Source: Parcubacteria group bacterium Gr01-1014_8
Lineage (GTDB): Bacteria; Patescibacteriota; Minisyncoccia; Phycocordibacterales; UBA2100
Reading direction: 5' to 3'
Length of the DNA stretch: 64,000 nt
Assembly (NCBI GenBank): GCA_007376385.1
Contig: VMGC01000005.1
Coordinates: 64,001 to 128,000, forward strand
The stretch's first letter is position 1. Each line of letters starts with the position of its first letter. This document shows, piece after piece, positions 28,366-59,581 of this stretch. Made by a program: the position numbers and the translations under genes. Below the pieces are notes generated by a model, which was not told where the DNA came from, did not search any database, and was given only the letters and a program-made list of their open reading frames with translations.

Positions 28366-28484
28366 CACCACACGGGTACTTCCATTTCACTAACATCGGG
28401 GTACCGATGAAGTGAAATTGGTCGCACCACACGGGTACTTCCATTTCACTAACATCGGGGTACCGATGAAGTGAAATTGGTCGC
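28366..28484 (+). repeat. Tandem direct repeat (2 x 59 nt) of a nested-hairpin element in the glnA leader
   Basis: The unit CACCACACGGGTACTTCCATTTCACTAACATCGGGGTACCGATGAAGTGAAATTGGTCG is repeated head-to-tail. Each unit folds as CATTTCACT..(CATCGG-GGTA-CCGATG)..AGTGAAAT. It lies ~95 nt upstream of glnA. Confidence 0.6.
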
Positions 28485-33427: not shown

Positions 33428-34471
33428 ATGCTTGTTGATGATGTCACCATAAAACTCTCTGGGGGCAACGGCGGTCCGGGCATCGTCGGCTTCAATCGCA
33501 CTAAAGGAAACACGGGTCCGACAGGCGGTAACGGGGGCCCTGGCGGCGATGTCATTCTTGAAGGCATTTCGGATATCAGCGCGCTTCTTCAATTCAGATT
33601 TAACAAAGATTTCAAAGGCGAAGATGGCAAGCAAGGCACAACGCGTCTGCGCGACGGCACGCGCGGTGAGGATTTGATATTGAAAATTCCGACGGGAACG
33701 GTCATCACGAATCTCGACACAGGCTGGACGCATGAACTGACGAAGGAGGGCGAGCACGTTATGGTCGCAAAAGGCGGCTATCGCGGCCGTGGAAATTTCC
33801 ACTTCCGCGCATCGACGAATACGACGCCGATGGAAGCCGAGACGGGCGAACTCGGAGAGAGTTTTACATTCCGCCTTGAACTCAAGATGATCGCCGACGT
33901 GGGTCTTATCGGTATTCCGAACGCAGGCAAATCGTCGCTTCTCAACGAACTGACCGGCGCGCACTCGAAGATAGGGAATTACGCGTTCACGACACTCGAG
34001 CCGCACCTCGGCGCATACTACGGGCTCATTCTTGCAGACGTGCCGGGTCTTATCGAAGGTTCGTCGGAAGGCAGGGGCTTGGGAGACAGATTCTTGCGCC
34101 ACATCGAACGCACGCGCGTCCTCTTTCATTTAGTGTCTGCGGAATCAGACGATGTCGTACGCGATTACAAAATAGTGCGGCAGGAATTGCAGGCCTATAA
34201 TCCTGCGCTCACAAAAAAAGAGGAGTATGTGTTTTTGACGAAGGTTGACCTCGTGGATGGTAAGGACGCGGAAGCAAAATTGAGGTTATTGAAGAAGATG
34301 AACAAGAATGCGCTCGCGCTCTCGGTCATCGAAGATAAGCGGATGAGGGCGGTGAAAGACATTCTCAACACGTTCCTAAAAGAAAAGAAGGTGGCTCCCC
34401 CTGGGACCACACTTGGATTTTCTGAAGCGGGAGTACCCGCTAAGAAAATCTCGGCGGTCGATGACAAATGA
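33428..34471 (+). CDS. obg: GTPase Obg/CgtA
   Basis: Gly-rich Obg fold (GGNGGPG..) followed by a G-domain (GIPNAGKSSLLN, DVPGLIEG). The last ~18 codons are supplied by a copy of repeat family 2. Confidence 0.9.
   Translation: MLVDDVTIKLSGGNGGPGIVGFNRTKGNTGPTGGNGGPGGDVILEGISDISALLQFRFNKDFKGEDGKQGTTRLRDGTRGEDLILKIPTGTVITNLDTGWTHELTKEGEHVMVAKGGYRGRGNFHFRASTNTTPMEAETGELGESFTFRLELKMIADVGLIGIPNAGKSSLLNELTGAHSKIGNYAFTTLEPHLGAYYGLILADVPGLIEGSSEGRGLGDRFLRHIERTRVLFHLVSAESDDVVRDYKIVRQELQAYNPALTKKEEYVFLTKVDLVDGKDAEAKLRLLKKMNKNALALSVIEDKRMRAVKDILNTFLKEKKVAPPGTTLGFSEAGVPAKKISAVDDK
34405..34460 (+). repeat. Hairpin repeat family 2, copy 1 (inside obg 3' end)
   Basis: GACCACACTTGGATTTTCTGAAGCGGGAGTACCCGCTAAGAAAATCTCGGCG. 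Homologous to 52449-52517 (same orientation) and 52936-52999 (inverse). Confidence 0.6.
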
Positions 34472-35159
34472 ACCGACAGTGATTTTTGAGAACGACGATT
34501 TTCTCGTCATCAATAAACCGGCCGGGCTCATCGTGCACTCGGACGGAAGGACGATAGAGCCGTCGCTCGCCGACTGGCTCATCGCGCGCTCCCCCGCGCT
34601 ACAAGAGGTCGGCGAGCCATGGGTGTCGCCGCAAGGAGAAAAAATTGCGTGCCCTGGTCTTGTGCATCGTTTGGATAGAACAACATCGGGTGTGATGGTT
34701 GTGGCGAAAACACAGGCGATGTGGAAATACCTGCGCGCAGAATTTAAAGAGCGGCGTGTCGAAAAGAAATATCACGCATTTGTCTACAGTCATGTGGAGG
34801 GGAGTTCTGGTCGGATTGTTTCTGAAATCATGAGGTCGTCTACGCCTCCTAAAAAATGGTATGCACGGCCATGCGACGAAAGCCACAAGCGAGCAGCCAT
34901 AACGGATTGGACGCTTTTGAAAAAGCTCGAAGATAACGGCGAGCTCATTTCGTATCTCGAAGTTCAGCCTCGTACCGGCCGCACGCATCAGATACGCGTG
35001 CATCTTGCATCTATCGGGTATCCTATAGTCGCGGACCATCTGTACTCCGACAAGAAGCCACTTTTAGGATTCACGCGCCCGGCGCTTCATGCACACAGTA
35101 TTTCATTCATGCTGCCGTCAGTAGAAAACCGGGAATTTATTTGCGAGCGTTGCGAGTGA
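34461..35159 (+). CDS. RluA-family pseudouridine synthase
   Basis: Catalytic motif HRLDRTTSGVMVVAK and ..FLVINKPAGL... Overlaps the obg stop by 11 nt. Confidence 0.85.
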   Translation: MTNEPTVIFENDDFLVINKPAGLIVHSDGRTIEPSLADWLIARSPALQEVGEPWVSPQGEKIACPGLVHRLDRTTSGVMVVAKTQAMWKYLRAEFKERRVEKKYHAFVYSHVEGSSGRIVSEIMRSSTPPKKWYARPCDESHKRAAITDWTLLKKLEDNGELISYLEVQPRTGRTHQIRVHLASIGYPIVADHLYSDKKPLLGFTRPALHAHSISFMLPSVENREFICERCE

Positions 35160-35785: not shown

Positions 35786-35811
35786 ATTGCAATTCTACAG
35801 TACAATGCGCC

Positions 35812-36264
35812 ATGATGGATCCGGATATCTCACCACAGGCAGAACCGGAAGCGACACCCGAAATCTCTGCAGAGGTCGCACCTGCGCCGGGTTCTGAACA
35901 AGTAATTCAAGAGACACAGTCTGCCCAGTCAGGGCCGGCGGAACCGGCTCCGCCGCCGCCGGCATCTGCATCTCCCGCACCCGAGACTCCTCTATCCGCC
36001 TCACTTCCGCTCATGCTCGGGCCTGCTCTCGCTATCAAAAACCTCGCACAGCAGGCGCTCGAAAAATTGCAATTCCGCAAAAAGGGCCGCCTCGACAAAA
36101 TCATCGAGCTTGCGAGAAGGAAGGGGAGCATCGTCAATAATGATGTGGAGATGCTCCTCAAAGTCTCGGACGCGACAGCCAGCCGCTATCTTGCAGAGCT
36201 CGTCAAACAGGGCACATTACGGCAAAAGGGTGTCCGCGCAGGCACGACCTACGAACCAGCGTGA
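35812..36264 (+). CDS. Hypothetical protein with disordered Pro/Ala-rich N-terminus and C-terminal winged-helix-like domain
   Basis: C-terminal ..IIELARRKGSIVNNDVEMLLKVSDATASRYLAELVKQGTLRQKG.. resembles an HTH/wHTH. Confidence 0.45.
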   Translation: MMDPDISPQAEPEATPEISAEVAPAPGSEQVIQETQSAQSGPAEPAPPPPASASPAPETPLSASLPLMLGPALAIKNLAQQALEKLQFRKKGRLDKIIELARRKGSIVNNDVEMLLKVSDATASRYLAELVKQGTLRQKGVRAGTTYEPA

Positions 36265-36367
36265 GCGACCAATTTCTCTTCGCGATATTCCGCGTTAGAG
36301 AAATGTGAGTGCCCGTGCGGTGCCAAGCCTTGGCTCAAACGGCGCCATTTGAGCCAAACGCCGGAAG

Positions 36368-39291: not shown

Positions 39292-39804
39292 ATGAGCGGA
39301 CCAGATGACATGCAAGGAGCCGTGACGCGCCGAAATGTGCTGAAAGCGGCTGCAGCGCTTGGCGCGATGGCAGCAGCACCGCTGCTGTTTGCCACAATCG
39401 CCGACGCGCGCGATTGCGAAGGGAAGCGGTGCGGGAATTGGCATATGAAGCCTTCTCCCGAACGTCGCGAAAATCCGGAGGAGGTCAAAAAGTTCAAAGA
39501 GGACATGAATACCGTTGTGAGCGAATACAAGAATATCCAGGAACTGCTAAACGACATACTGACGCATCACAAACTTGACCCAAAGCGCTTCACAATAACG
39601 ATGTCGCCGCCTGGTCGCGCAATTGAGATAGCTATATCGGAAAACGGCAAATCCGTCGGCAGTTTCGGCTTGAGTACCATGCAGCTAAGGAGCGCATACG
39701 GCGTTGATTCCGGTATCCCACCTGAACAACTCATCAACAAGAAAGGATTTCAGACGCTATTTTTCAAGCATTTACAGGAGCTCCGTCTCATGGAGAGTAA
39801 ATAG
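39292..39804 (+). CDS. Hypothetical Tat-signal secreted protein
   Basis: Twin-arginine motif TRRNVLKAAAALGAMAAAPLLFA. Confidence 0.5.
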   Translation: MSGPDDMQGAVTRRNVLKAAAALGAMAAAPLLFATIADARDCEGKRCGNWHMKPSPERRENPEEVKKFKEDMNTVVSEYKNIQELLNDILTHHKLDPKRFTITMSPPGRAIEIAISENGKSVGSFGLSTMQLRSAYGVDSGIPPEQLINKKGFQTLFFKHLQELRLMESK

Positions 39805-39856
39805 AGCACTCAGTCGGACAGTCATTGTGGCGTGGTATTCTAGTCATATTATCGAT

Positions 39857-40960: not shown

Positions 40961-41049
40961 GCCGCTTTCTCGAGTTCTTCCCTTCAAAGGGGACCGGGCA
41001 AACACCGAAGCTGAAGGCTAACTCTGCCCGAATTTCCAAAAAGAAGGAT

Positions 41050-42861
41050 TTGTGGGATGATGCGCTGATGGATTTTGGTCGCAAGTCAATAGGGGACATG
41101 CTAAACGGGATGGCTCGGTACCGAGTCCCAAAATACCAGCGCTCCTTTACCTGGGGTACAAACCAAGTCTCAGATTTTTGGAGAGACCTTTGTGAAGCAG
41201 ATGAGAGAGAAGGATTCTTTCTCGGGACCATGATATTGCATAAGGATAGAGAGGGGGTAGAGGTGGAAAATCTCAAGAATATTGTTGATGGACAACAGAG
41301 AATGACCGCCGCAAGTTTATTATTGCTCGCATGCAGGAATCACTCGTCAAGAAGGAACCGAGACAGGGCTGCTGCACTTGATCAAACTCTGATGTTTCGT
41401 GATATCGCTACTGGAAGAGCGGAAACGCTCAGACTTGAGGTCGCTCCAGACATTCTAGATGCTTTTCGTCACATGGTGACTGCTAGGCAGTGGGATGAAC
41501 AAACTTTTCCAGACGAAGTAGATGGCCGAGTCGCCAGACGAATAAAGTCTATTTATAAGTATTTCAAGCAGCAGGTAGACGAACTATCAGATGCAGAGCT
41601 CTCGTCCTTACTTAATAAATTGTTGAATTCATACTTTCTTGTGATAGAAATTGAAGATATCACACAGGCTTTTGAGCTTTTTGAACGAACAAATGCGCGA
41701 GGAACTCCGCTGAATGCAGGAGAGTTGCTCAAGAACAGACTGTTTGCAGAGGCGCAGGAGAAAGAAATTGTAGAAGGCGAATGGGAGGAGATTGTTTCTA
41801 ACTCTAATGGGATGCTACTGCGAATGTTGAAGTATTTTGCAGCTCTTAAGCACGGGCAAGAAACGGGTCGGACGGTTTTGTATCGACATCTGCGTGGTCA
41901 AGTTGAATCGGACACACCGAGCCAGTTCATCCACGATTTGAGCGCTTTCTCTTCATATTTTGGAAAGTTCTTGGACAACAAACTTCAAGCCGCACCATTT
42001 ATTGATCGAAATTCTGATAAGTCATTCGAATTTCTCTTCATTGATGAGATTGCTTTTAAAAAGTTTGGTCGCAGCATGAGTGCGATATCTCTTTTTGGTG
42101 TCTACATTGTCCTTCCCGTTGTTTTCGCTGGCCTAAAAGGGCTATCGAAATTGAAAGACAAAAGCGGATTTAGACCCGCGTTGAAAGATTTTCTAAATCT
42201 TCTAGGTACGATGGAGTGTTTCCATTTTATCAATAATCAGATATGTACACGTCCCTCGAATCGTGCCGAGTCACTATATGCAAGTAAAACAAATGTGTTG
42301 GCGACAGCGGAGACATGCGCACAGTTCAGAGAGGTAATAAAGCAGATATCAAAAGGACTCAAGGAGATAAAGGTCGCTAATAAGGAAGAGTTCCTACTTA
42401 ATTTTACTGGACTTTCATATACGAGTCCTGCAAGCGATAAGCCTCTCTTTGCATACGTCTTTGATAGATTTGAATCCTCTCCATTCGCGTCAGCAGCACC
42501 TGTAACCATATTTGATCCGTCAGCTAATTACAGCCTGAACCGCGTATTCGAAGTTGAACACATTACCCCTCGAGCAATGTGGGGCAATTTATATCCGGAA
42601 GATGATTTGGTCAACAATATCGGTAATTTACTCATCCTAACGCAGGAGACTAATAGGCTTGTAGATACCAAACCATTGCCGGATAAGATTCGAATAATGA
42701 AGGAACGAGGCTACGACAATTTAAGTACCGTTCAACAATTTTCTAAAAAGTTCGAGGATAAGGAACTCAAGTGGTTACGTCCGACAGACATAACAGAGCG
42801 ATCTGTCGCAATGGCAGCTCAAGGCTACAGTGATATTTGGGATCCATGGCCGAATGATTGA
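41050..42861 (+). CDS. DUF262/DUF1524 (GmrSD-like) modification-dependent type IV restriction endonuclease
   Basis: N-terminal DUF262 motifs (..RYRVPKYQRSFTW.., IVDGQQRMTA). C-terminal DUF1524 His-Me finger (EVEHITPRAMW....NIGNLLILTQETN). Confidence 0.75.
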   Translation: MWDDALMDFGRKSIGDMLNGMARYRVPKYQRSFTWGTNQVSDFWRDLCEADEREGFFLGTMILHKDREGVEVENLKNIVDGQQRMTAASLLLLACRNHSSRRNRDRAAALDQTLMFRDIATGRAETLRLEVAPDILDAFRHMVTARQWDEQTFPDEVDGRVARRIKSIYKYFKQQVDELSDAELSSLLNKLLNSYFLVIEIEDITQAFELFERTNARGTPLNAGELLKNRLFAEAQEKEIVEGEWEEIVSNSNGMLLRMLKYFAALKHGQETGRTVLYRHLRGQVESDTPSQFIHDLSAFSSYFGKFLDNKLQAAPFIDRNSDKSFEFLFIDEIAFKKFGRSMSAISLFGVYIVLPVVFAGLKGLSKLKDKSGFRPALKDFLNLLGTMECFHFINNQICTRPSNRAESLYASKTNVLATAETCAQFREVIKQISKGLKEIKVANKEEFLLNFTGLSYTSPASDKPLFAYVFDRFESSPFASAAPVTIFDPSANYSLNRVFEVEHITPRAMWGNLYPEDDLVNNIGNLLILTQETNRLVDTKPLPDKIRIMKERGYDNLSTVQQFSKKFEDKELKWLRPTDITERSVAMAAQGYSDIWDPWPND

Positions 42862-43321
42862 TGCAGCATTAATCAAACAGAAGACAAGGTACTTACGGGA
42901 CGGCCGGGCCCCGATTCCGAAAAGTGAAAAAATCTCTCGCACGATGAGTGCGATAAGAGCAAAGAACACGAAGCCCGAGTTACTTGTTCGCAAGGTTTTC
43001 CGAAAAGTAGGAATACGCGGATATCGATTGCATTGGAATAAAGTAGCCGGACGACCGGATATTGTGTTCCCTAAGAAAAAAGTCGCTGTGTTTGTTCACG
43101 GCTGTTACTGGCACGGATGTCCACATTGCAAACTTACACTCCCGAAAACGCATCGAGCATTTTGGCGTGCAAAGTTCAAGAGAAACAAGGAAAGAGACGC
43201 TCATAAGACAAAAGACCTGCGGAAATTAGGATGGCGTGTACTTACCGTGTGGGAGCACCAAATAAAGAAAGATGCGGATCAAATCGCTGCACGCGTCGTG
43301 AAGGCTCTTCGTGACGCTTGA
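42854..43321 (+). CDS. vsr: Very-short-patch-repair endonuclease
   Basis: ..SRTMSAIRAKNTKPE..GRPDIVFPKKKVAVFVHGCYWHGC..WEHQIKKD.., the Vsr catalytic core. Start codon uncertain (42854 or 42944). Confidence 0.85.
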   Translation: MIDAALIKQKTRYLRDGRAPIPKSEKISRTMSAIRAKNTKPELLVRKVFRKVGIRGYRLHWNKVAGRPDIVFPKKKVAVFVHGCYWHGCPHCKLTLPKTHRAFWRAKFKRNKERDAHKTKDLRKLGWRVLTVWEHQIKKDADQIAARVVKALRDA

Positions 43322-44648
43322 TGCTCTGCAAAAGTGCACGGCCTATTTCTTCAATGATTCCGACGACAAGTGCGTTACCCATGAAGAACGCTCGTTTTAC
43401 GTCGGAAATGTCGTCATATGCGGTATGGCGAGCAGGGAATTGGCATAATAACTCTAACTCTGTTGGGGTAAGTCGGCGGTATTTTCCGGACTTTGTTTTT
43501 ACAACATGCTTGAATCGCGAGGGTGCGGGCCCTCCCTCTCCTGTAATTATCGTGCGGGAAGGTTTATCCAAAGCATCCGGAAAAGTCATTGGACCCTCTG
43601 CGTAGTGATAAGTGAATCCATCTGTCCCATGGCGCTCTTCCTTTTTAGCACCCTTGAGATATTTCCACTCTTTTAGTGAGCCGTTGATAAAATATTCTTC
43701 GGCGACTTTGTGTTCCGGAAGTAGAATATCACCGAGAGTAATGAAAGGGCCACCGTATTTTGGAGTTACGCGAGCGGTTGTGATCCGACCGTCACTCATG
43801 ACCCCAGCATTCGCAAAATCTATATCGTCCGGGAACAATTGTTCAAAGTCTCTCGTTATTCTGACGGGATCATCAGCGACATCGTGTCTCGCGAATCTTG
43901 AAATTTCATCTTCGACTGCGAGTCGTTGCGCGAAAACTCCTTCTTTTGTCAGCCAATTGATCGCGTCAGTCGAACGTAGCGCATTTGCAATACCGGTTCC
44001 ATTCTTGAACGCGAGAATAAAGATCCGGCGCCTGCGCTGTGGTTTTCCGTAATCAGCTGCATTGATAACGCGCCATTCGACGACATATCCGAGGTTTGCG
44101 AGCGAAGCGAGCATGATCGCAAAATCACGACCGCGGGCAGATGCTGGGGACTTTAATAATCGGTCAACGTTCTCTAGGAACACATAGGGAGCAGAGTCCT
44201 TGTGTCCTTTTTCTTGAAGAATGCGATAGATCTGCCACCAGAGAACGCCTTTCTTTCCCTGGAGTCCCGCAGCTTGGCTCAACGTTCGTGCAACCGAATA
44301 ATCCTGACAAGGAAATCCTCCGACAAGAACATGATGGTCCGGGATGTCACCTGTTGCGACGGTCGCGATATCTTGATTACTGTGTCCTTTGCTGCCAAAA
44401 CGTGCCCGGTACACCTCGGATGCGTGCTGGCGTTTCGTTGATGGCTCCCACTGATTACTCCAGATGGTCTCGAATTTCAGACCTGCTCTCGCCGCTTCCT
44501 TTTTTGATGCTTGGTCGAGTCCGAGACGAAATCCTCCCACCCCTGCGAACAATTCAATGACCTTAAGTGGCACCGCTTGTCGATCGTCTTTTTTGAGCGT
44601 ATGTTTGGCTAGTTTCCCCATAGCTAAATCGTACCAAGGAATATCCAT
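43242..44648 (-). CDS. dcm: DNA (cytosine-5)-methyltransferase
   Basis: Motif I ELFAGVGGFRLG, motif IV GGFPCQDYS, motif VI FLENV, plus a target-recognition domain. Overlaps vsr at its 3' end (convergent). Confidence 0.9.
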   Translation of the reverse strand: MDIPWYDLAMGKLAKHTLKKDDRQAVPLKVIELFAGVGGFRLGLDQASKKEAARAGLKFETIWSNQWEPSTKRQHASEVYRARFGSKGHSNQDIATVATGDIPDHHVLVGGFPCQDYSVARTLSQAAGLQGKKGVLWWQIYRILQEKGHKDSAPYVFLENVDRLLKSPASARGRDFAIMLASLANLGYVVEWRVINAADYGKPQRRRRIFILAFKNGTGIANALRSTDAINWLTKEGVFAQRLAVEDEISRFARHDVADDPVRITRDFEQLFPDDIDFANAGVMSDGRITTARVTPKYGGPFITLGDILLPEHKVAEEYFINGSLKEWKYLKGAKKEERHGTDGFTYHYAEGPMTFPDALDKPSRTIITGEGGPAPSRFKHVVKTKSGKYRRLTPTELELLCQFPARHTAYDDISDVKRAFFMGNALVVGIIEEIGRALLQSIKRHEEPSRRVQRFDPHLSLFGAPTR

Positions 44649-44681
44649 TTGATCAAGATCGAGTTATCCACTGTCTGCCAT

Positions 44682-45452
44682 ATGCATAAAAAGTTCATCG
44701 AACTACTGAATATACCCGATCCAAAGATCCTGGAACCCAAAAAAGTGGGACCTAAACGCCTACAGATGGTCAACTTTGCACGAACGCTTTCTAGAGGAAC
44801 CTTAGAAAGCCCGCATGAACACAAGATTTGGAAAGTCAGGGCTTATTGGATTGGATTCCAAAAACCAGGAATTGAGACTGCTGCGGACGCGGAAACCAAT
44901 TACAAAGATGGTACTGTCGCTCCTAATCCTGACGACATGAAGCCCACTATATGGAAGTCGAATAAGATCATTAAAGCACCAGCGTCATTTGAAGAGATTT
45001 TTCACGTTTTTGAAAGACTTTTACGAAATGATGAAGAAAATGTTTTGGAGCTGCTTGCCGCCATCCTTTATAGAGATGCTTATTTGTTGGATTACGAGAT
45101 CAGTGATCAGCCGAACGCTGTCCCCGAATATAGGTTATCCCAAGATATACTTCAGGAACTTGAGAAACCGCTCTTCAGTGTTACTGGATTACCAGCTGAG
45201 GTTTATTTGAAATATTTGCAAATGATCGCATGGAATGAGGACGTCAAATATAACGCCTTAGGTTATAATATTGCGAAAGAGAAGACGGGCAGGCAGGGAA
45301 ATCTATTAACCTACACCCACTTGATTGCTGTGCTGTTAGGTAGGGCGCGATTAGCAAATTTTTGCTACGCATTTGCTCGAAGTGGAGGAGTAGCACCTAT
45401 AACGGGAATTGCTACCTGGGCAGCATTTCCTTGGCTTAGAAATGAGAAGTAA
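44682..45452 (+). CDS. Hypothetical protein divergent from dcm (candidate cognate restriction endonuclease or defence component)
   Basis: ~257 aa from the first ATG; the annotated ORF starts at a TTG at 44649. No recognisable motif. It lies in the low-GC island only ~33 nt from the dcm start. Confidence 0.45.
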   Translation: MHKKFIELLNIPDPKILEPKKVGPKRLQMVNFARTLSRGTLESPHEHKIWKVRAYWIGFQKPGIETAADAETNYKDGTVAPNPDDMKPTIWKSNKIIKAPASFEEIFHVFERLLRNDEENVLELLAAILYRDAYLLDYEISDQPNAVPEYRLSQDILQELEKPLFSVTGLPAEVYLKYLQMIAWNEDVKYNALGYNIAKEKTGRQGNLLTYTHLIAVLLGRARLANFCYAFARSGGVAPITGIATWAAFPWLRNEK

Positions 45453-45499
45453 TAATTTCTACCTTGCGAACGGATCCGCATCATTGGTACACTTCTTGA

Positions 45500-45760
45500 A
45501 TGAAAAAACTTCCATCTTCGGCGCATCATTTGGTAATGCCGTTCGTACTCTCGCTCCTAATGACAGCGATAGTGTCCGGAATATCTAGTGTACACGTTGC
45601 AGGATTTGCCGGTGCGCGCGAGGTATGGTTCGGCGCGTGGCTGTGGTCGTGGGCAGTAGCGTTTCCGGCGCTTCTCCTTGTGATGCCGATCGTCCGGAGG
45701 ATAGTTGCCTATATCGTGGAAGCGCCAGGTCAGCAGGAGTCGGACAAGAAGATGCAATAG
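45500..45760 (+). CDS. Small two-TM membrane protein (DUF2798-like)
   Basis: Two hydrophobic helices and a Trp-rich loop (AWLWSWAVAFP). Confidence 0.4.
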   Translation: MKKLPSSAHHLVMPFVLSLLMTAIVSGISSVHVAGFAGAREVWFGAWLWSWAVAFPALLLVMPIVRRIVAYIVEAPGQQESDKKMQ

Positions 45761-45769
45761 AGAACTCCG

Positions 45770-46072
45770 ATGAATGCGCAGCAGCTTAAAGAAAAAATGC
45801 AAAAGGGAGATGAGATGCTCCTTTTCGATATCCGAGAGAGTGAAGAGCTGGTGGATGTGCCGCCGATCGCGGGCTCGATCCATATGCCGATGGGCAGAAT
45901 GTTAGAGGAGGCGAATAGCGGGACGCTCCCCAATGATAAAAAGATGATCGCTATCTGCAGAACAGGCCGACGGAGCGATATCGTAGCTCGAGAACTTACC
46001 GAGAAGAGCTACGATATCGAGTCGCTGGAAGGGGGTGTAGTCGCGTGGCTGGAGGAAAAGAAAGCGGTATAA
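45770..46072 (+). CDS. Rhodanese-domain sulfurtransferase
   Basis: Active-site loop CRTGRRS in a ~100-aa single rhodanese domain. Confidence 0.8.
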   Translation: MNAQQLKEKMQKGDEMLLFDIRESEELVDVPPIAGSIHMPMGRMLEEANSGTLPNDKKMIAICRTGRRSDIVARELTEKSYDIESLEGGVVAWLEEKKAV

Positions 46073-46083
46073 TCCCACAGGAT

Positions 46084-46509
46084 ATGAAAACACAGTACAA
46101 ATTTGCATTCGTAGCGGTGCCGCTCGCGATCATCGCGTTTGCGCTGAGCCGTGTCATCTGGCCGGACCCAGCGGGCATGGCGGGGCCCAGCTCTTCGCTT
46201 ATTCCGCACTTCATTTTCCTCGGAGCTCTTGAGTCTCTTTCCTTCGGTCTCGGCGTCGCGTTTCTCATTTTCGGCTGGTCACGCGTGGTCGCCGCACTTC
46301 CTGAGAACAACGCGCTTGCGACAGCGTCGTTTGTAGCTATAGCGTGGATGCTCATTTCGTGGTGGCCGCACGACAACATGCACCGTGTAAACGGCATGGA
46401 GGATTTTGCAGGCCTCTTGCGCATCGAATACATTTTTCATTTCACGCTCATGATCTCTGCCTTTATCGTCGTGCTGTACCTGTGGAAATCCCTCGGCAAC
46501 CGCTCGTAA
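46084..46509 (+). CDS. Hypothetical integral membrane protein
   Basis: Four predicted TM helices. Start placed at the internal Met MKTQYKFAF. Confidence 0.45.
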   Translation: MKTQYKFAFVAVPLAIIAFALSRVIWPDPAGMAGPSSSLIPHFIFLGALESLSFGLGVAFLIFGWSRVVAALPENNALATASFVAIAWMLISWWPHDNMHRVNGMEDFAGLLRIEYIFHFTLMISAFIVVLYLWKSLGNRS

Positions 46510-46561
46510 TCATCTGAAATTTGCAGTTGTGCCTCCCGCGGGTGGGGTATAGAGTTCTCGC

Positions 46562-47449
46562 ATGAGGACCATCGTCAGCGTCCTGATCTCTATCATCGTC
46601 TTTTCTCCATTTGTTGTAAGTGCGAATTGGATAGATCCTGTGCGCGACGACCAGCTTTTGTACGAGGATTGCAAGACTTACCTGCCTACGGTTGGCAGTC
46701 TTCTTGGAGGAGCTGCGGGGGCGGCGTTTGCCGCCGGGACGGGTGGTCTTGGATCAGTTGCCGCGTTGTCGTTCGGGGTGGCAGGGACCGCTGCCGGCGT
46801 CGTGTTTTGCGACGCGTTCCATAAAAAGTCAGACTCATCGACCATCGGCGATGCAGGCATCCGCATTTTGTCGAACCCGACCTACTACATTCGCGCGCTT
46901 GATACTGATCAGTCAATAAATCCCGGTTACCTTCTTCCGTATACCGGATTCAAAATGTTGCTGGGAGCGGCCGATGTCTTTACGCGCGAGATTCCACCGA
47001 CGAAGCCGAAAGTGGAGGAAAGTCCGGTAGAGGTCGTGGTGGTGGTCGAAGAGAAAACGAGCGACGCCATCCCCGTGTCTCAACAAATCCAGGAGGAGAG
47101 TGCGCCGCCGGAGCAGGCGACGAAAAAAAACGGCGATCTGCATGGGAAATGGAGTGCGGCGTGGCGCGCATATGATGGGCAGTCGGGAACATCGGAAATG
47201 GAAATACAGCATCATGCGGACTCGGCTCAATTTTCCGGCACGGGGACGCAATTGTTCAAGGGAGTGACAACCGCATTTACCATTGAGGGCACAGTGCAGA
47301 GCAGCCATGTGACGGTGACCATGGAATTTCCGACGATACCGGACACGGTGATATACGAGGGAGCCCTCAACCGCAACTATGGAAGCGGGAAATGGACGAA
47401 CACACTTCAGAATTCTGGCACATGGTCGATGACCAGAGACAGTAGGTAG
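46562..47449 (+). CDS. Hypothetical secreted protein
   Basis: Signal peptide, a Gly/Ala-rich segment, an acidic linker and a beta-rich C-terminal domain. Confidence 0.45.
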   Translation: MRTIVSVLISIIVFSPFVVSANWIDPVRDDQLLYEDCKTYLPTVGSLLGGAAGAAFAAGTGGLGSVAALSFGVAGTAAGVVFCDAFHKKSDSSTIGDAGIRILSNPTYYIRALDTDQSINPGYLLPYTGFKMLLGAADVFTREIPPTKPKVEESPVEVVVVVEEKTSDAIPVSQQIQEESAPPEQATKKNGDLHGKWSAAWRAYDGQSGTSEMEIQHHADSAQFSGTGTQLFKGVTTAFTIEGTVQSSHVTVTMEFPTIPDTVIYEGALNRNYGSGKWTNTLQNSGTWSMTRDSR

Positions 47450-47483
47450 CTCTTTATTTACTATTCATGACGAACATAACAGT

Positions 47484-47816
47484 ATGATGAGCAAAGCATT
47501 GATAGGAATTACAGTGTTGGTGGTTGCAGTGTTGGCAGTTTTCTATGTAGGTAATCAGGTCGTCCAGACGACACCTCTTAGCAGTGCGGACGGTCCGTTT
47601 CAGTACGAAATAATGGATCCGCCGCTTGAGTGTTTACAACAGGCAATGGAAGCATCAAAAAGCATTACTGATCTGGGGCAGAGGTTGATAGCGGAGCAAC
47701 GTGCGCAAAGTGACTGCGTCGTTCAAAAACTGAACGAAAAAGGCGCCCTCGGCTGGGAGCTTGTTCTCGTTCGAGAAACCCAACCCATCCCGACATACAT
47801 CTTCAAGAAGAGATAA
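47484..47816 (+). CDS. Hypothetical membrane-anchored protein (DUF4177-like C-terminus)
   Basis: N-terminal TM anchor. C-terminal ..GWELVLVRET....YIFKKR. Confidence 0.4.
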   Translation: MMSKALIGITVLVVAVLAVFYVGNQVVQTTPLSSADGPFQYEIMDPPLECLQQAMEASKSITDLGQRLIAEQRAQSDCVVQKLNEKGALGWELVLVRETQPIPTYIFKKR

Positions 47817-47829
47817 TATTTGCATCAAG

Positions 47830-48033
47830 TCATCGCTTTTGACGCATAAGATAGAGTATGAGTGCAACGAGAAAACAGGCGCCTGCGAGAATAACAGCAA
47901 ATCCGATATAGATGGGAAACACAATGACCTCCACGACCCTAGGCGGGTCAGTTATTACCTGCAAAAACAAATAGCTCGCACCGCCGAGCGCAAGAATTCC
48001 AAAGATGAAGAAGGTTTTGCTCGCTGCAATCAT
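47830..48033 (-). CDS. Small two-TM membrane protein
   Basis: 67 aa with two hydrophobic helices. Confidence 0.35.
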   Translation of the reverse strand: MIAASKTFFIFGILALGGASYLFLQVITDPPRVVEVIVFPIYIGFAVILAGACFLVALILYLMRQKR

Positions 48034-48265
48034 GCCTTCAATACTACAATGTTTTGCGGAGTCGAGAACAAGCCAGCCTAGCCGCTTCGTCTTTGAGAAG
48101 AGCCGCCTCGGTTCTTGTTGACTCGATACTGTGGAATGGGCGGCCGCCTCCCTTTACCCGCCTGGTCGTTTTGACGTTTCCACTTTTCTTCTTTCATGCA
48201 CGCCAGTGTATCATGGCCTCCTTCAAACGTTGGTATACTTCACAGATAGCAGCTAACTTTTTTAT

Positions 48266-48529
48266 ATGCATACAAATGCTTCAAAAGCAGGGCAAGTGGG
48301 CGCGATATTTTTAGGAGGAGTGCACGTATTGTGGTCGGCTCTCGTCCTTCTCGGATGGGCGCAGCCGCTGGTGAACTTCTCGATGTGGGCACACATGGTA
48401 GAGAAGGGTATTACCATCAAGCCGTTTGAATTTGGCGCAGCGATCACCGTCATCATTGTTGCAAGCTGTGTTGGATATTGCGTCGGATACGCACTCTCCA
48501 CGATCTGGAACAAAGTGCACCGCGCATAG
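48266..48529 (+). CDS. Small membrane protein
   Basis: 87 aa with two to three hydrophobic segments. An ORF of similar size overlaps it on the opposite strand, so the strand assignment is uncertain. Confidence 0.35.
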   Translation: MHTNASKAGQVGAIFLGGVHVLWSALVLLGWAQPLVNFSMWAHMVEKGITIKPFEFGAAITVIIVASCVGYCVGYALSTIWNKVHRA

Positions 48530-48536
48530 ATCTTCT

Positions 48537-48705
48537 AGGTGCGGCCTCCCAAAATACCAAACTGACCGAGGGACCTGCATGCGCGTGTCCTTTGTTTTGT
48601 TACTTGCGCAGAATACCCCGTAGCTCTGCTGCGGGGATAAATGCGCAAGAGCGGAGGGGGTCGGGGAACCGCGTTCGGTTCCCCGTGGAGGAGAGCAGAG
48701 CCGCA
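48537..48705 (+). promoter_or_regulatory. Structured leader region upstream of basic-protein gene (long-range stem AGGTGCGGC...GCCGCACCT)
   Basis: The 9-nt ends pair across ~160 nt. An internal perfect hairpin GGGGAACCG-CGTT-CGGTTCCCC is present, and a T-run precedes the ATG at 48722. Confidence 0.35.
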
Positions 48706-48721
48706 CCTAACATTTTTTGAT

Positions 48722-49231
48722 ATGGCGACGACAAAACAACGACGAGCAGCAAAGAGGAATATCAAGCGCGCGCAGAAGGCGTGGAAGGGAATGACGAAGC
48801 GACAGCACACGCTCGCGCAACCGCAGGGACGCATCAGAAAAAAGCCGGGTTCGACAGGAAGGGGGCGTTTCTATCGCGTCATGGTGCGGCCTAAGGGCGA
48901 GTTCGTTTCATTCCGCGTGCAGGATGTGGGAAAGAAGGGCGGGCTGGAACGTCTGGCGGGAAGGCGCTCGAGCGGGAGCTGGGACACGGTGTCGTGGCTC
49001 GTTGGCAAGAATGCGGCGCGTGTTACATCAAATGGTCAGCTGAAGATCACGGGAAAGAAAGAGAAAACCGCACTCAAACAGATACGCGGTCCCATCGTGC
49101 ATGTGAAGGGTGACATTTTCCGCGCGCATCCGGCGCGCAATGTGCCGGAGGGCGAGAAGCCCACGGCCGCGATGCGCCGTGCACAGAGAAAAAATATCAA
49201 AAAGGCGCAGAGAGCGAGGAGGCGAGGATAG
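48722..49231 (+). CDS. Hypothetical highly basic protein
   Basis: Lys/Arg-rich. RRAAKRNIKRAQKAW is repeated near the C-terminus as RRAQRKNIKKAQRARR. Start placed at the internal ATG downstream of the structured leader. Confidence 0.45.
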   Translation: MATTKQRRAAKRNIKRAQKAWKGMTKRQHTLAQPQGRIRKKPGSTGRGRFYRVMVRPKGEFVSFRVQDVGKKGGLERLAGRRSSGSWDTVSWLVGKNAARVTSNGQLKITGKKEKTALKQIRGPIVHVKGDIFRAHPARNVPEGEKPTAAMRRAQRKNIKKAQRARRRG

Positions 49232-49249
49232 CCTGTTACAATACGCCCT

Positions 49250-50566
49250 GTGGAATCGGTTGTCGTACTCGTTGACGCGCTCACGGAACTCTTTCACAGG
49301 GCGATAGAGACTGCGCTGCTCGTCGTCAGTATTTCTCCTTTGATCGCGGTAGCGGGAGTGCTGCTTTTTCTACTGGTGATCGCTGCGTACTTAGCGCTGA
49401 GCGCTCGGTGGACTGCAGAGCAGCATGTTGCAGATCTTGTGCATAAGATAGATGCCGTATCTGAAAAACTGAGCGAAGCCGAAAAGATAGGAAAGTTTGG
49501 GAGTTTTACCTGGGACATTGAAGATCCCTCTGAATCGTTCTGGTCGGAGGAAATGTACGCGCTCACGGGACTTTTTCAGAGAGATAAACCTCCCGCTATT
49601 GAGGCGATGGTAGAGGTGGCGCATAAAGCAGATAAAGAAGCAGTACGAACGGCATGGAAAAGCGCAATGATGCGAGCTGGTCCATTCACATTTACTTATC
49701 GTATCGTTCTCGGATCAGAACAGATACGGCACGTGCGCGTACATGGAGTGACCAGCGTGACCAGTGTGGGCAGCGAGAAGCGCCTGCTTCGTATTACCGG
49801 CGTCATGCACGACATCACGAAAGAAATGGAGATAGATAAAGCGAAATCAGAATTCGTTTCGCTTGCGTCGCATCAATTAAAGACGCCGCTCACGTCTATT
49901 CGATGGCTTTCCGAGGCTCTCCTCGGGGGAAAAGCCGGGGAACTTGTCGAAAAGGAGAAGGAATATGTGAGCCAAATACTCGACGCGAACCGGCGGATGG
50001 TGGAAATGGTGAACGAACTTCTGAATGTATCCAAGATCGAGCTCGGAACGTTCGCAACGGATCTTGAAGAGTTTGATGTGTGTGACCTTCTTGCGCGTGT
50101 GGTTGAAGAGCAAAAGCACATGGTTGATGCGAAGAGCATCGCGCTTCGATGTATCTGTGCGTCGGATGTGCCGCATCTTCAGGGGGACAAGGCGATGGTG
50201 AGGATGATCCTCCAAAATCTTGTTTCCAACGCTATTAAATACACCCTGGCCAAGGGTTCTGTTGAATGCGAGATAACGACGGGCGGCGCAAGGCAAGACA
50301 TGCTTTTTATTCGCGTCTCCGACACCGGTATCGGCATTCCGAAAGCGGAGCAGGGCAGAGTGTTCGAGAAATTGCACCGTGCATCGAACGCGGCAGAACT
50401 CGTGCCGGATGGTACCGGTCTTGGATTGTACGTCGTCAAATCTATTGCTGAGAAGACAGGCGGAAATGCAACGTTTGATTCCATCGAAGGCAAGGGCACG
50501 ACGTTTCGTGTTTCGGTGCCGCTTGTATGGAAGGAAAATTATGAGAAGAAATCGGTCGAAATGTAG
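49250..50566 (+). CDS. Sensor histidine kinase with PAS domain
   Basis: N-terminal TM region, a PAS-like segment, H-box LASHQLKTPLTSIRWL, and HATPase motifs (NAIKYT, DTGIGI, GTGLGLYVV). GTG start. Confidence 0.85.
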   Translation: MESVVVLVDALTELFHRAIETALLVVSISPLIAVAGVLLFLLVIAAYLALSARWTAEQHVADLVHKIDAVSEKLSEAEKIGKFGSFTWDIEDPSESFWSEEMYALTGLFQRDKPPAIEAMVEVAHKADKEAVRTAWKSAMMRAGPFTFTYRIVLGSEQIRHVRVHGVTSVTSVGSEKRLLRITGVMHDITKEMEIDKAKSEFVSLASHQLKTPLTSIRWLSEALLGGKAGELVEKEKEYVSQILDANRRMVEMVNELLNVSKIELGTFATDLEEFDVCDLLARVVEEQKHMVDAKSIALRCICASDVPHLQGDKAMVRMILQNLVSNAIKYTLAKGSVECEITTGGARQDMLFIRVSDTGIGIPKAEQGRVFEKLHRASNAAELVPDGTGLGLYVVKSIAEKTGGNATFDSIEGKGTTFRVSVPLVWKENYEKKSVEM

Positions 50567-50587
50567 AGTGCTACACTAAAGAGAAAT

Positions 50588-50974
50588 ATGAGCGAAAAGA
50601 AACAGACCGTTCTTCTCGTCGAAGATGAGGCGCCAGCTGCACTTGTCCTTTTCGCCGCGCTCGAAAGTGAAGGATATATGGTTCTGAAGGCGACAGACGG
50701 CAAAGAGGGCCTCGCGCTAGCGCTCGCTAACCATCCGGATGTCATTCTTGCAGACCTAAAAATGCCGAAGATGGGCGGCATGGAGATGATCCACGAGATA
50801 CGGCAGGACTCCTGGGGGAAGAAAGCAGAAATAATCATTCTGACGAATGTGACGGATGAAAAGAGCCTGGAAGAAGCGATGAGCGAGGGGACGTTCCACT
50901 ACATGGTGAAGGGGGATTCGAGCGTAGCCGATATCGTCGCAAAGGTTCGCTCGCGGCTCTCTCCGACACAGTAG
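50588..50974 (+). CDS. Single-domain response regulator (CheY-like receiver)
   Basis: LLVEDE..D...ILADLKMPKMGG..K.. Confidence 0.85.
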   Translation: MSEKKQTVLLVEDEAPAALVLFAALESEGYMVLKATDGKEGLALALANHPDVILADLKMPKMGGMEMIHEIRQDSWGKKAEIIILTNVTDEKSLEEAMSEGTFHYMVKGDSSVADIVAKVRSRLSPTQ

Positions 50975-51026
50975 CGTTTTCCACTCTTGGATACCTTTCA
51001 TATCAAAGAATGTGTAGAATAGCCGC

Positions 51027-51554: not shown

Positions 51555-51566
51555 AACACAGAAAGC

Positions 51567-51604
51567 AAAAAGCGCCCCGCCTAAAGAGGCGGGGCGCTTC
51601 GTTT
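51567..51604. terminator. Rho-independent terminator (AGCGCCCCGCC-TAAAGA-GGCGGGGCGCT), bidirectional
   Basis: GC-rich 11-bp stem flanked by an A-run and a T-run. An inverse copy lies at 52395-52438. Confidence 0.65.
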
Positions 51605-52394: not shown

Positions 52395-52438
52395 AAAAAG
52401 AAAGCGCCCCGCCTCTTTAGGCGGGGCGCTTCTTTCTT
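52395..52438. terminator. Rho-independent terminator, inverse copy of 51567-51604
   Basis: Same stem AGCGCCCCGCC with the loop inverted (TCTTTA), flanked by an A-run and a T-run. Confidence 0.6.
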
Positions 52439-52448
52439 GACCGGCACG

Positions 52449-52517
52449 TGGCTCGCTTACGCGGCCACACTTGGATTTTCTAAAGCCGGCATACGCCCGC
52501 TTTAGAAGATCTCGGCG
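52449..52517 (+). repeat. Hairpin repeat family 2, copy 2 (immediately 3' of csp)
   Basis: GGCTCGCTTACGCGGCCACACTTGGATTTTCTAAAGCCGGCATACGCCCGCTTTAGAAGATCTCGGCG. It forms an inverted pair with 52936-52999. Confidence 0.6.
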
Positions 52518-52736
52518 TTATGCCATCGGCTGAGCAACTGCTCGGCTGACCTGAGTCGCGTTCGGACCTTTCGGAGAGTCCACGACTTCAAACGTCAATT
52601 TGTCACCTTCTCGAAGCTCGTCGAATGTAACGCCGACAAGCTCTTTGGAGTGGAAGAAGACATCCTTCTCCTGCCCCTCGATCTTGATGAACCCAAATCC
52701 TTTATCAGTGATTCGGGCGATTGTTCCTGTTTGCAT
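52518..52736 (-). CDS. csp: Cold-shock protein (CspA family)
   Basis: RNP motifs GFGFI and VFFH in a ~72-aa product from the internal Met MQTGTIARI. Confidence 0.9.
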   Translation of the reverse strand: MQTGTIARITDKGFGFIKIEGQEKDVFFHSKELVGVTFDELREGDKLTFEVVDSPKGPNATQVSRAVAQPMA

Positions 52737-52935
52737 AATGAAATGAAAATAGAATTGGTAAAAACATGCTCGCAACGCGCTATAGAGTTTAATCCAAGTG
52801 GTCGCAGGTAAGTATCAAAAGCAGTGTGCTGGGAGTTGTAGGTCGATCCCTCTTCTCTGGATCAGCCCTGAAATTGATGCCCGAAGGGTATCACACGCTT
52901 TCTCGCTTGTCCAGTCCTAAAAGAGGGGTATACTG

Positions 52936-52999
52936 CGCCGAGATTTTCTTAGCGGGTACGCCCGCTTTAGAAAATCCAAGTGTGGTCGCGAAGCGAGCC
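52936..52999 (-). repeat. Hairpin repeat family 2, copy 3 (inverted; upstream of csp)
   Basis: Reverse complement of the 52449-52517 / 34405-34460 element. The spurious ORFs 52826..53014 and 34195..34467 share the peptide AEIFLAGTPA(L/S)ENPSVV because of it. Confidence 0.6.
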
Positions 53000-53010
53000 A
53001 CCGCCCTGTT

Positions 53011-53484
53011 ATGAAGATAAAGATGAACAAGACAGTACTCATTGCGGGCTCCCTCGCCATTCTGGCTATTGTTGCGCTCTCCGCCTACTTTTTACTATCC
53101 GGCGGGCGCACAGGAGAAGGAGTCCTAGGCGGTTTTGTTTCGGGGCCAGGCCCCGATGAGAGACCGAGATCTATGTTGCTGACCATATGGAGGAGCACGG
53201 GCAGCATCAAGTACACCCGAGAATTCAAGGCAAACGGCAGTCTTATTGATTCATACGACAGCGCTCCGGCTGCTCCGCTCGGAGGCAGATGGATGATAGT
53301 CAATCCACTCCTCGAAACAGCGCTTCCCGTACCAGCAGAGAGCCTCGACTCGACCGTAATAAAGATAATGTTTGATACAGGTGACGTGTTTTATTTTGGT
53401 GTTGATGCTCTATCTGAAACAGAACTGAGGCTAAAGAACTTAAGCGGCAATGGGAACACATTGCGCTACAGCAAGATGAAGTAA
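53011..53484 (+). CDS. Hypothetical membrane-anchored protein
   Basis: N-terminal TM anchor. No recognisable motif. Confidence 0.4.
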   Translation: MKIKMNKTVLIAGSLAILAIVALSAYFLLSGGRTGEGVLGGFVSGPGPDERPRSMLLTIWRSTGSIKYTREFKANGSLIDSYDSAPAAPLGGRWMIVNPLLETALPVPAESLDSTVIKIMFDTGDVFYFGVDALSETELRLKNLSGNGNTLRYSKMK

Positions 53485-54450: not shown

Positions 54451-54696
54451 AGAGGTGTTTGCTCGGCATGTGTTTGCAGCCGCTGGTGTCCGGCGCTGCA
54501 CATTCGGTCTGTTGCTCTTAGTACTTCCTACATTCAGCCTACTGGCTTCAGTATTTCCTCGTTCTTCACTTGGTCATCGCTCTGCGCTCGGCAGGCTGCA
54601 TACCTTAGTGGTGCCGACCGGCACCACTAAGGTATGCGTTCTTTGCGGGGATATCTTTCTTGTTTGGGGCATCGTACGCCTGCTACTGTTACTGGG

Positions 54697-58421: not shown

Positions 58422-58512
58422 TCAAGAGTCTCTGCATAGAGCTCAAATCCAAAATACCATAATGGTGCCGGTCGGCACCATTATGGTATTTCGTTTTTCA
58501 TGGTGAGAAGCG

Positions 58513-59113: not shown

Positions 59114-59222
59114 CCTTTATTGGCGAGCGTTGCGAGCGAAGCGAAAATGTATTCATTTTCATTTTCGAGCCGAGGAGCCAACATAGGGTCGAATACCCCG
59201 CGGTATGAATACCCTTTATTTT
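59114..59222 (+). repeat. Intergenic structured repeat, family 1, diverged copy 3
   Basis: TTTATTGGCGAGCGTTGCGAGCGAAGCGAAAATG-TATT-CATTTTC..GAGCCGAGGAGCCAACATAGGG-TCGAATA-CCC. It keeps the direct repeat and both hairpins with different stem sequences, i.e. compensatory changes. Confidence 0.5.
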
Positions 59223-59581
59223 AAGAGCCTGTCGATAGCATCAATGATGCCTTGTGCTGATTCATCTGATTTCACTACGTAGCCGCGGATACCGAGCGCC
59301 ATTCCTTCCGCGATGTTATCCATTGAAGACACGTTGGAGGTAATGAGTACAGGCGTTTTACCCTCGCCGTATTTTTTGTTCAGTTCCTTCAGGAATTGGA
59401 GGCCGTCCATTCCAGGCATCTTGATATCAAGAAGGATGCCGTCGGGCTGTGATTCGCTCATTTTTTGCAGCCCCTCGCTTCCGTCACTCGCACATACCAC
59501 TTCGTACTCTGCGCTGTCCAGCTCTCCTTTCATGAGACTCTTGAAAGTCTCGTCATCATCGATAATAAGTATTTTCTTCAT
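59216..59581 (-). CDS. Orphan single-domain response regulator (CheY-like)
   Basis: ILIIDDDE..D..LLDIKMPGMDG..K.. Confidence 0.85.
   Translation of the reverse strand: MKKILIIDDDETFKSLMKGELDSAEYEVVCASDGSEGLQKMSESQPDGILLDIKMPGMDGLQFLKELNKKYGEGKTPVLITSNVSSMDNIAEGMALGIRGYVVKSDESAQGIIDAIDRLLK

Follow-up and report, generated by a model that had tools for sequence, protein, structure and literature searches.

The genome of Parcubacteria group bacterium Gr01-1014_8 was analyzed over a stretch of 64,000 nt (contig VMGC01000005.1, positions 64,001 to 128,000 of the forward strand), which is referred to below as the window and numbered from its first letter. Among its genes are csp, encoding a cold-shock domain protein, and obg, which is followed by a gene of the rluA pseudouridine synthase family. 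Three copies of a short double-hairpin repeat, here termed Family A, lie at these genes: a canonical copy upstream of csp, a variant copy downstream of it, inverted relative to the first and 418 nt away, and a third copy at the obg/rluA junction (table 1). Further copies were found in other genomes and in metagenome contigs, whose loci are designated by L numbers. Family A appears to be an undescribed repeat family that is widespread in bacteria of the candidate phyla radiation (CPR), and in our reading it is probably mobile.

Family A copies in the window

The 50-mer given as the common core of the repeat in the initial annotation matched the window exactly at 52936-52985 on the minus strand and with two mismatches at 34407-34456 on the plus strand, and the number of matches expected by chance was 0.00 (100 dinucleotide-preserving shuffles). 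The variant copy shared at least its first 22 nt and its last ~14 nt with the others in BLAST comparisons, its middle being changed. A covariance model (CM R1), built from 29 family members and run over the window with filters off, recovered exactly three full copies: the canonical copy at 80.5 bits (E=2e-15), the junction copy at 74.6 bits (E=4e-14), and the variant copy at 63.8 bits (E=8.5e-12). No further copies were found in the 8 kb of contig upstream of the window. Whichever strand is taken, all three copies fold into the hairpin described (z-scores between -2.8 and -5.9, the latter for the variant copy). Thus, the claim that there are three real hairpin-forming copies was borne out, and so were their locations; the spans had been drawn too short, as each copy extends ~14-16 nt further in the 5' direction and includes a second hairpin, H1 (GTGGCTCGC..GCGACCAC), that had been overlooked.

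The general Family A unit is 65-72 nt long and consists of H1 (GTGG-C-TCGC-loop-GCGA-CCAC), the dinucleotide AC, a second hairpin H2 with the loop NGTA, and a (C)TCGGCG tail. H1 is variable, and H2 is long and conserved; its internal loop, AA/A, is asymmetric, and it has two G.U wobble pairs that are conserved on one strand only. The variant copy has, in place of the AA/A loop, the shifted perfect stem TTCTAAAGC/GCTTTAGAA, which had been described before and proved to be real. The 5' arm of this copy is sense-like, and its loop and 3' arm (ACGCCCGCTTTAGAA) correspond to the antisense strand of the canonical copy, with a 16/16 BLAST match to the plus strand at 52957-52972; from this comparison, the variant looks like a flip of the hairpin tip. 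Rfam returned 0 matches on the whole window at gathering thresholds and no family matching the element on the csp region at E<=10, and ARAGORN detected no tRNA, tmRNA, or tRNA-like fold in it. Among other structured candidates, hammerhead and other small ribozymes were rejected because their core motifs are absent, integron attC sites because there are no R'/R'' boxes, and the 11-nt tetraloop receptor because only CUAAG is in common and the opposing strand differs; dif/Xer sites were also considered and dropped.

Table 1. Coordinates of Family A, Family B, and associated features in the window.
Feature	Position	Strand	Basis
Family A canonical copy, 66 nt	52936..53001	-	Exact 50-mer, CM, fold, promoter scan
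Family A variant copy, 70 nt	52448..52517	+	CM, BLAST, fold, terminator scan
Family A copy at obg/rluA junction, 66 nt	34391..34456	+	CM, open reading frames, gene calls, C-terminal comparison with L093 and L095
H1 hairpin of canonical copy, GTGG-C-TCGC-TTC-GCGA-CCAC	52982..53001	-	Fold, compensatory changes
H2 hairpin of canonical copy, C-TTGGATTTTCT-AA-AGCGGG-CGTA-CCCGCT-A-AGAAAATCTCGG	52938..52980	-	Fold, alignment, CM
obg, 347 aa, with 26-aa element-created extension	33428..34471	+	Open reading frames, gene calls, relatives
rluA-family pseudouridine synthase gene	34461..35159	+	Gene calls; orthologues with in-frame element at two internal sites
csp, cold-shock domain protein, 72 aa	52518..52736	-	Between the two inverted copies; L095 orthologue 79% identical
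Bidirectional intrinsic-terminator-like hairpin, downstream of csp and of element copy	52401..52432	.	Terminator scan
Family B, two perfect tandem 59-nt units, upstream of glnA	28366..28483	+	H2-type hairpin, same CUAA/AAG internal loop
Family B copy, compensatory inner stem, abuts stop codon of open reading frame 35812-36264	36262..36322	-	CM partial match 24.9 bits, E=0.002; alignment

We examined the setting of each copy. The variant copy sits between the csp stop codon (52518) and the terminator-like hairpin, which would place it in the csp 3' untranslated region (UTR), antisense to csp; it is probably part of the csp transcript, and a role of such a 3'-UTR hairpin in stabilizing the csp mRNA is possible. 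The canonical copy falls in the intergenic space between csp and a divergent 157-aa open reading frame (ORF) on the plus strand, 10 nt upstream of the ATG at 53011 and just past a promoter-like plus-strand site (52907-52934). With the promoter-like site before it and the ATG after it, this copy would be in the leader of the divergent 157-aa gene. The peptide AEIFLAGTPA(L/S)ENPSVV, which had been ascribed to the repeats, is indeed common to ORFs 52826-53014 (+) and 34195-34467 (-). In addition, a terminator-like hairpin, AAAGCGCCCCGCC-NNNNNN-GGCGGGGCGCTT, is repeated at 51563-51604 and 52397-52438 on the two sides of a 223-aa ORF and gives rise to the peptide KAPRLKRRGA common to spurious ORFs.

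The junction copy, read in frame, corresponds to Obg residues 322-343 (VAPPGTTLGFSEAGVPAKKISA); these 22 element-encoded codons and four more make up the 26-aa extension, and 4 nt separate the end of the copy from the start codon of rluA (34461). The Obg C-terminus reads ..KEKK|VAPPGTTLGFSEAGVPAKKISA|VDDK* in the window and ..KDKKI* / ..LLREK* in the relatives L093 and L095, respectively, and the obg 3' end is free of the element in both L093/L094 (Obg 83% identical) and L095/L096 (81%). Since the copy occupies the position of the relatives' stop codon, Obg reads through into the element, and the aligned termini showed that insertion at this site displaced the ancestral obg stop codon. Of the 119 Obg relatives listed, most were 317-334 aa long, one being 347 aa, and they covered only 90-94% of the query; together with the differing C-terminal ends, this shows the tail to be unique, a point that the initial annotation had proposed to check. 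The initial annotation had placed the third copy inside obg, as the source of the last ~18 residues. The repeat-encoded tail is correct; the copy is located at the stop site of the ancestral gene and not inside it, and the residues number 22 plus 4. An empty obg-rluA junction was sought in L054 and L088, where obg is not adjacent to rluA.

Family A outside the window

One genome per species was scanned with an exact pattern of the element, and metagenome contigs were scanned with a looser one; the search pattern fixed the outer H2 stem. The genome scan yielded full copies in two other metagenome-assembled genomes (MAGs), one in L003 and two in L005, and a chance 22-mer (L004) that was discarded. 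In the metagenome contigs, 87 loci matched, of which ~30 carried true copies, or ~35 copies when tandem units were counted; another ~35 of the 87 represented an unrelated conserved human-gut gene, and the others were chance matches. Scanning viral contigs with the element pattern gave 0 matches. The four open-frame peptides of the element, concatenated and searched against a database of 5.8 billion proteins, returned nothing at E<=0.1, the peptides being too short for a database of this size. The hosts of Family A are CPR/Patescibacteria of Parcubacteria/Kaiserbacteria type.

Both hairpins proved to be conserved as helices. Across 29 distinct copies, 97.2% of the pair cells held standard pairs, compared with 90.6% in shuffles and ~39-46% when the partners were slid, and none of 500 shuffles reached the observed pairing values. 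Changes on both sides were seen at 10 pairs, and eight of the nine H1 pairs were compensatory. The outer H2 stem provided a further case in L099, a copy found independently by protein search inside a coding sequence, in which UUUUCU/AGAAAA has changed to UUUGCU/AGCAAA. These results showed that both Family A helices are maintained by compensatory substitutions.

One setting of the element is the 23S rRNA gene. At least 13 loci carry the element within an insertion of 256-770 nt that follows the U equal to E. coli 2593, a position numbered from the Rfam alignment and the known E. coli sequence; group I introns have been described at this position in CPR (PMC11270868). RNAalifold analysis of 10 such insertions (L2593) gave P1 with an internal guide, P3, P4, P5, P6, P8, and P9, with covariation; P7 could be formed by GACU/AGUC, and the last nucleotides of exon and insert are U and G, respectively. 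The Rfam group I model RF00028 did not match the insertions even at E<=10; we therefore refer to them as group-I-like, an assignment based on the topology given by RNAalifold and on the site being a known one. In the 10 aligned introns, the element forms the branched tip of P6, H1 being P6a and H2 being P6b. It is located in the P5 loop instead in L044, and L005 has an extra copy in the P2 hairpin, with the H1 subtype seen in the window. From the 256-nt insertion of L009 (3633-3888), P3-P5 are seemingly missing, whereas the element and P7, P8, and P9 are retained; this insertion may be a deletion derivative that does not splice, in an otherwise complete 23S gene.

Other copies were observed 80-170 nt downstream of 5S rRNA (L007, L018, L046, and L023), near tRNA 3' ends (L016, L021, and L081), between the convergent genes recR and rplU (L031), and 18 nt past the stop codon of a gene for an RRM protein (L040). 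The element is always in the sense orientation in stable-RNA operons, whereas both orientations occur in mRNAs.

Within protein genes, the copies seen were exclusively in frame and free of stop codons. In-gene units measured 66, 69, or 72 nt, whereas non-coding units of 65-70 nt followed no multiple-of-3 rule. Four of the six element frames are open in our own translation, and two of them are used in genes; the predicted element-spanning peptides include LGFSK/EAGVPAK and IFLAGTPALENPSVVAK. One in-frame copy of 72 nt follows ADHLY in rluA (L003/L054), and another of 66 nt follows EIVR (L056/L088), both in orthologues of the window rluA, with 61% and 56% identity, respectively. An rluA-family gene was thus hit three times at three positions, namely 4 nt before the start in the window, at 2472-2537 in L056 (EIVR), and at 7686-7751 in L003 (ADHLY), and this triple association is unlikely to be due to chance. 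In the ExoX-like 3'-5' exonuclease of a Kaiserbacteria genome (L052), three 69-nt units stand just before the ExoIII histidine.

Gain and loss could be followed at several of these sites. The three window copies are absent from close relatives, which marks them as lineage-specific insertions, and judging from these comparisons we regard the insertions as recent. At one site in the exonuclease orthologues, there are 0 units in L098 (P0122, 93% identical to L052), one unit in L099 (P0123, 74%), and three units in L052 (P0121). The empty site of L098 reads GGT TCG GCC|CAC and the filled site of L099 reads GGT TCG GCG[GCAGC...ATC TCG GCG]CAT, which indicates that the integration site is a hexamer nearly identical to the 3' end of the element; the 6-nt TCGGCS repeat at this site is the element's own conserved end. 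The units of L052 are arranged head to tail, and the middle unit differs in H1, partly in a compensatory way, with one H1 pair mismatched. Such arrays have no spacer (...TCTCGGCG|GCAGC...) and were also found in L014 and L021. TCGGCG-like hexamers were modestly enriched 5' of the element (P~0.003 for 17 flanks, which are not all independent and most of which match poorly).

The window also contains a second family, Family B, which is a sister of Family A, being homologous over H2 with the same CUAA/AAG loop. Its consensus is CACCRCACGGGYACTT-CCATTT..CTAA-stem-loop-stem-AAG..AAATTGG-TCGC, and the inner stems vary between copies. In L095, a Family B copy at 14893-14950 lies in frame in a YgjP-like gene (MEYT[HHKGTSIFLNRITGKKNWSL]KRSRRAKYM vs MEYTIKRSRRAKYM in the window). 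An IS200-type insertion sequence (IS) is located at 31430-32045; its Y1 (HUH) transposase gene occupies 31519-31974, it has left-end and right-end hairpins of its own, and L095 lacks it between the genes for the ammonium transporter and AI-2E. Between obg and a YgjP-like gene lie ~16.5 kb (~34461-51026) with genes for RluA, GmrSD, Vsr, and a DNA methylase; in L093, obg is directly followed by the YgjP-like gene, and in L095 there are ~4 kb of different small genes. By this comparison, the segment is a variable island, and the same-orientation copies at 34391 and 52448 lie near its edges. Other repeats were also noted. A 112-nt repeat, D1, at 6887-6998, 35135-35246, and 59115-59226, has the internal palindromes GAAACGCAAAAGAGCACTTTTGCATTTC and CTCGGAGCAAGCTCCGA; identity between two of the copies is 94%, the one at 35135 overlaps the final eight codons of rluA, and there is no Rfam match. 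Near-perfect palindromes of 36-40 nt (AAATACCTTAAGTGTGCCGACCGGCACACTTAAGGTATTT) are present at 22599-22638, 54600-54635, and 58452-58491, and the differences among them preserve each palindrome. Finally, a ~20-nt motif (TATCTCATGGGGTA / TACCCCRTGAGATA) recurs in both orientations in intergenic DNA at 1945-1974, 17449-17479, 22474-22499, 24799-24820, and 27676-27698, and it may be a promoter or operator motif.

Proposed mobility and its alternatives

We propose that Family A is probably a selfish, structure-constrained mobile repeat, non-autonomous and moving, or having recently moved, at the DNA level. The element would be propagated in trans by an enzyme that recognizes its folded top strand; recognition as a folded single strand is suggested because conservation of the G.U wobbles is limited to one strand. 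Integration would take place preferentially beside a hexamer like the element's own 3' end (TCGGCS), and such hexamer-directed integration would account for the tandem arrays, the precise empty sites, and precise loss. Copies in transcripts would be carried along as a stable double hairpin, and copies in genes would be translated as a tolerated loop of 22-24 aa. Selection would then leave only the harmless placements, at the ends of genes, in peripheral loops of introns, or, in frame, in surface loops of proteins that are dispensable. The bracketing of csp by an inverted pair would be a by-product of a preference for gene ends and not a functional cassette.

More tentatively, and with appreciably more doubt than we attach to mobility itself, we raise the possibility that the double hairpin is a new type of autonomous-looking mobile module of ultra-small CPR genomes, one that doubles as P6a/P6b of the L2593 intron, spreads without a linked transposase beside TCGGCS, possibly by a single-stranded or RNA-templated route tied to the intron, and is translated in genes. 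A functional link to RluA is a side possibility within this scheme.

Several points weigh against mobility at the DNA level. No mobilizing enzyme was identified: the only HUH/Y1 transposase of the window has different end hairpins, and a tblastn search with this TnpA against all element-bearing loci gave no match outside the source genome, so that no RAYT-like association (one with a REP-associated tyrosine transposase) is seen. As a mobilizer, this IS200-type TnpA is a candidate by type only. The preference for TCGGCS comes mainly from one site, and there is no strongly conserved flank. The element has no terminal inverted repeats, its ends being GTGGC/GCAGC... and ...CTCGGCG and its inverted repeats being confined to the internal hairpins, and no target-site duplication was detected at rluA, at obg, or in the 17 flanks examined. 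Copy number is low (three copies in the 72 kb examined). We infer the transcription and translation of the copies, and the conservation of outer H2 is partly by construction, because the search pattern fixed this stem. In addition, the strong covariation and the constant P6 placement in at least 10 diverged introns would suit a functional RNA module.

Such a module, for instance one that binds protein or makes a tertiary contact, would be P6a/P6b of the L2593 intron. With a role in processing, stability, or regulation, it would have been taken up by other transcripts as well, at the tails of rrn operons and tRNAs, in the csp 3' UTR, and in the leader of rluA. The AA/A loop and the two sense-strand G.U pairs are invariant, and the P6 position is fixed in 10 diverged introns. 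The sense orientation in stable-RNA operons points in the same direction, but both orientations are found in mRNAs, including antisense copies in the csp 3' UTR and inside rluA. Similarly, the three links to one rluA orthologue, at different positions, would fit a functional role. Against such a role, orthologous loci of close relatives lack the element, and tandem arrays stand within the exonuclease gene. The reading-frame filter on in-gene copies would be needless if only RNA function counted, and the element matches no Rfam family. On balance, we consider an RNA module an unlikely explanation of the family.

Somewhat harder to sustain is the possibility that Family A is a REP/REPIN-like (repetitive extragenic palindromic) or IS200/IS605-derived element of the palindrome-associated transposable element (PATE) kind, for which an HUH Y1 transposase, for example the TnpA of the window, would act on the single-stranded DNA to move it. 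A Y1_Tnp gene does lie 2.4 kb upstream of the obg copy, but no Y1 gene was present in any other element-bearing locus. The imperfect hairpins at both ends, the lack of target-site duplication, the precise empty sites, and the strand-specific wobble pairs would all be expected of this route, and the TnpA left-end hairpin and the 52448 variant both contain CTAAAGC/GCTTTAG; yet the IS left-end and right-end hairpins (CTCCGGCGTTAGCCGGAG / GCCGGCGTAGCCGGC) bear no relation to H1 and H2, and these two are dissimilar whereas IS200/IS605 ends are alike. In addition, no fixed 4-5-nt target is seen on the 5' side of the element, where there is only the weak TCGGCG-like enrichment, and the element is not restricted to extragenic DNA. 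We thus regard movement by such an enzyme as doubtful.

The initial annotation had raised a miniature inverted-repeat transposable element (MITE) as the source of mobility. Part of this idea survives, in that Family A is small, non-coding, and dispersed, with insertion polymorphism and other signs of mobility. Derivation from a DDE-transposase insertion sequence, as in a classical MITE, is very improbable: the element has no terminal inverted repeats (ends GTGGC... and ...TCGGCG), none of the rluA, obg, and csp sites shows a target-site duplication, the 6-nt repeat in the exonuclease gene is the conserved end of the element itself, and no parent IS turned up, with no dedicated scan of public collections made for one.

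A device specific to csp, whether a mobile cassette carrying csp, a segment able to invert, or an RNA structure that responds to cold, is the least credible explanation of all: two inverted copies bracket csp, one of them in its probable transcript, but L095 keeps the synteny from YgjP-like to csp and the conserved csp 5' UTR without a copy on either flank, the upstream copy is situated past that conserved 5'-UTR region, where the csp promoter was placed by eye, and the element occurs at many non-csp sites, no other element-bearing csp locus having been found. Because the L095 csp locus is empty and the element occurs in many unrelated contexts, a specific csp link of the Family A element is not supported. 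The mobile csp cassette proposed earlier is thus abandoned, and the proposed cold-responsive structure is not supported either. Relative to the csp transcript, the two copies are placed differently, one being antisense in the 3' UTR and the other upstream of the region conserved with L095. Comparison of csp flanks had been suggested as a test of mobility, and the flanks of L095 lack the element, yet other signs of mobility are present.

Comparison with known elements and significance

Full-text searches brought up work on CPR rRNA and tRNA introns and nothing about such repeats in Patescibacteria, and our literature search found no description of REP-like, MITE-like, or Rickettsia palindromic element (RPE)-like repeats in CPR/Patescibacteria. 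RPEs are palindromic repeats of ~100-150 nt that occur, without a transposase, in frame in protein genes, in RNA genes, and in intergenic DNA of a reduced genome. Family A is likened to them by description: it is a small palindrome without transposase, terminal inverted repeats, or target-site duplication, inserted in frame and giving short tolerated peptides. In-frame insertion without loss of frame, a feature of the RPEs that Ogata et al. reportedly described in 2000, was found for Family A at two sites of rluA, in the ExoX-like gene with one or three units, and in the Obg tail. Unlike RPEs, Family A is about half the size (65-72 nt), has two hairpins, belongs to another phylum, forms a component of a group-I-like rRNA intron, and builds head-to-tail arrays.

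REPs are extragenic, usually number hundreds per genome, have a conserved 5' tetranucleotide, and flank their RAYT gene. Family A shares with REP/REPIN elements an imperfect palindrome folding on one strand, a location at gene 3' ends or between convergent genes, the formation of arrays, and the lack of target-site duplication, but it occurs in coding sequences and an intron, with only three copies in 72 kb, no flanked Y1 gene, and no conserved 5' tetranucleotide. As in the PATEs of IS200/IS605, there is a hairpin at each end, no target-site duplication, precise excision, and strand specificity; unlike in PATEs, the hairpins differ from those of the window IS, H1 and H2 are dissimilar, and no fixed target tetranucleotide was seen. 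Closer in shape are the mitochondrial double-hairpin elements and GC clusters of fungi, reportedly treated by Paquin et al. in 2000, which are likewise two-hairpin mobile mini-elements of intergenic DNA, introns, and variable regions of rRNA, with occasional in-frame insertion. They differ from Family A in being organellar and eukaryotic and in having no sequence relation to it. To our knowledge, no bacterial counterpart of the mitochondrial elements has been described.

Within introns, Family A resembles the P6 extensions of group I introns, as it is the P6a/P6b branch at 23S position 2593 in at least 10 aligned loci (site: PMC11270868). Unlike such extensions, the unit is also found outside introns, and as it has no catalytic core, it is not itself an intron. 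The palindromic amphipathic repeat coding elements (PARCELs) of surface proteins in Mollicutes and other microbes are likewise palindromic DNA repeats that can be translated in genes (PMC2996958). PARCELs are defined as coding repeats, whereas most Family A copies do not encode protein, and it is the nucleic-acid helix that is under selection. By analogy, the behavior of Family A is closest to that of RPEs and is also REP/REPIN-like, and its shape and habitat are closest to those of the fungal mitochondrial double-hairpin elements and GC clusters; by the features tested, it appears to fall outside the RPE, REP/REPIN, and mitochondrial double-hairpin classes.

In the annotation of MAGs, the element accounts for spurious ORFs and for unusual additions to proteins, among them the Obg tail and the RluA and ExoX insertions. 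It also connects a dispersed repeat with a peripheral domain of group-I-like introns, a link of which we found no bacterial report, and it would offer a tractable case for studying how a hairpin element might move without a recognizable transposase. CPR/Patescibacteria genomes are among the smallest and most streamlined. If Family A is mobile, it would be a natural marker of recent genome dynamics and of horizontal exchange among CPR lineages, and it would mean that selfish DNA persists even in these streamlined genomes.

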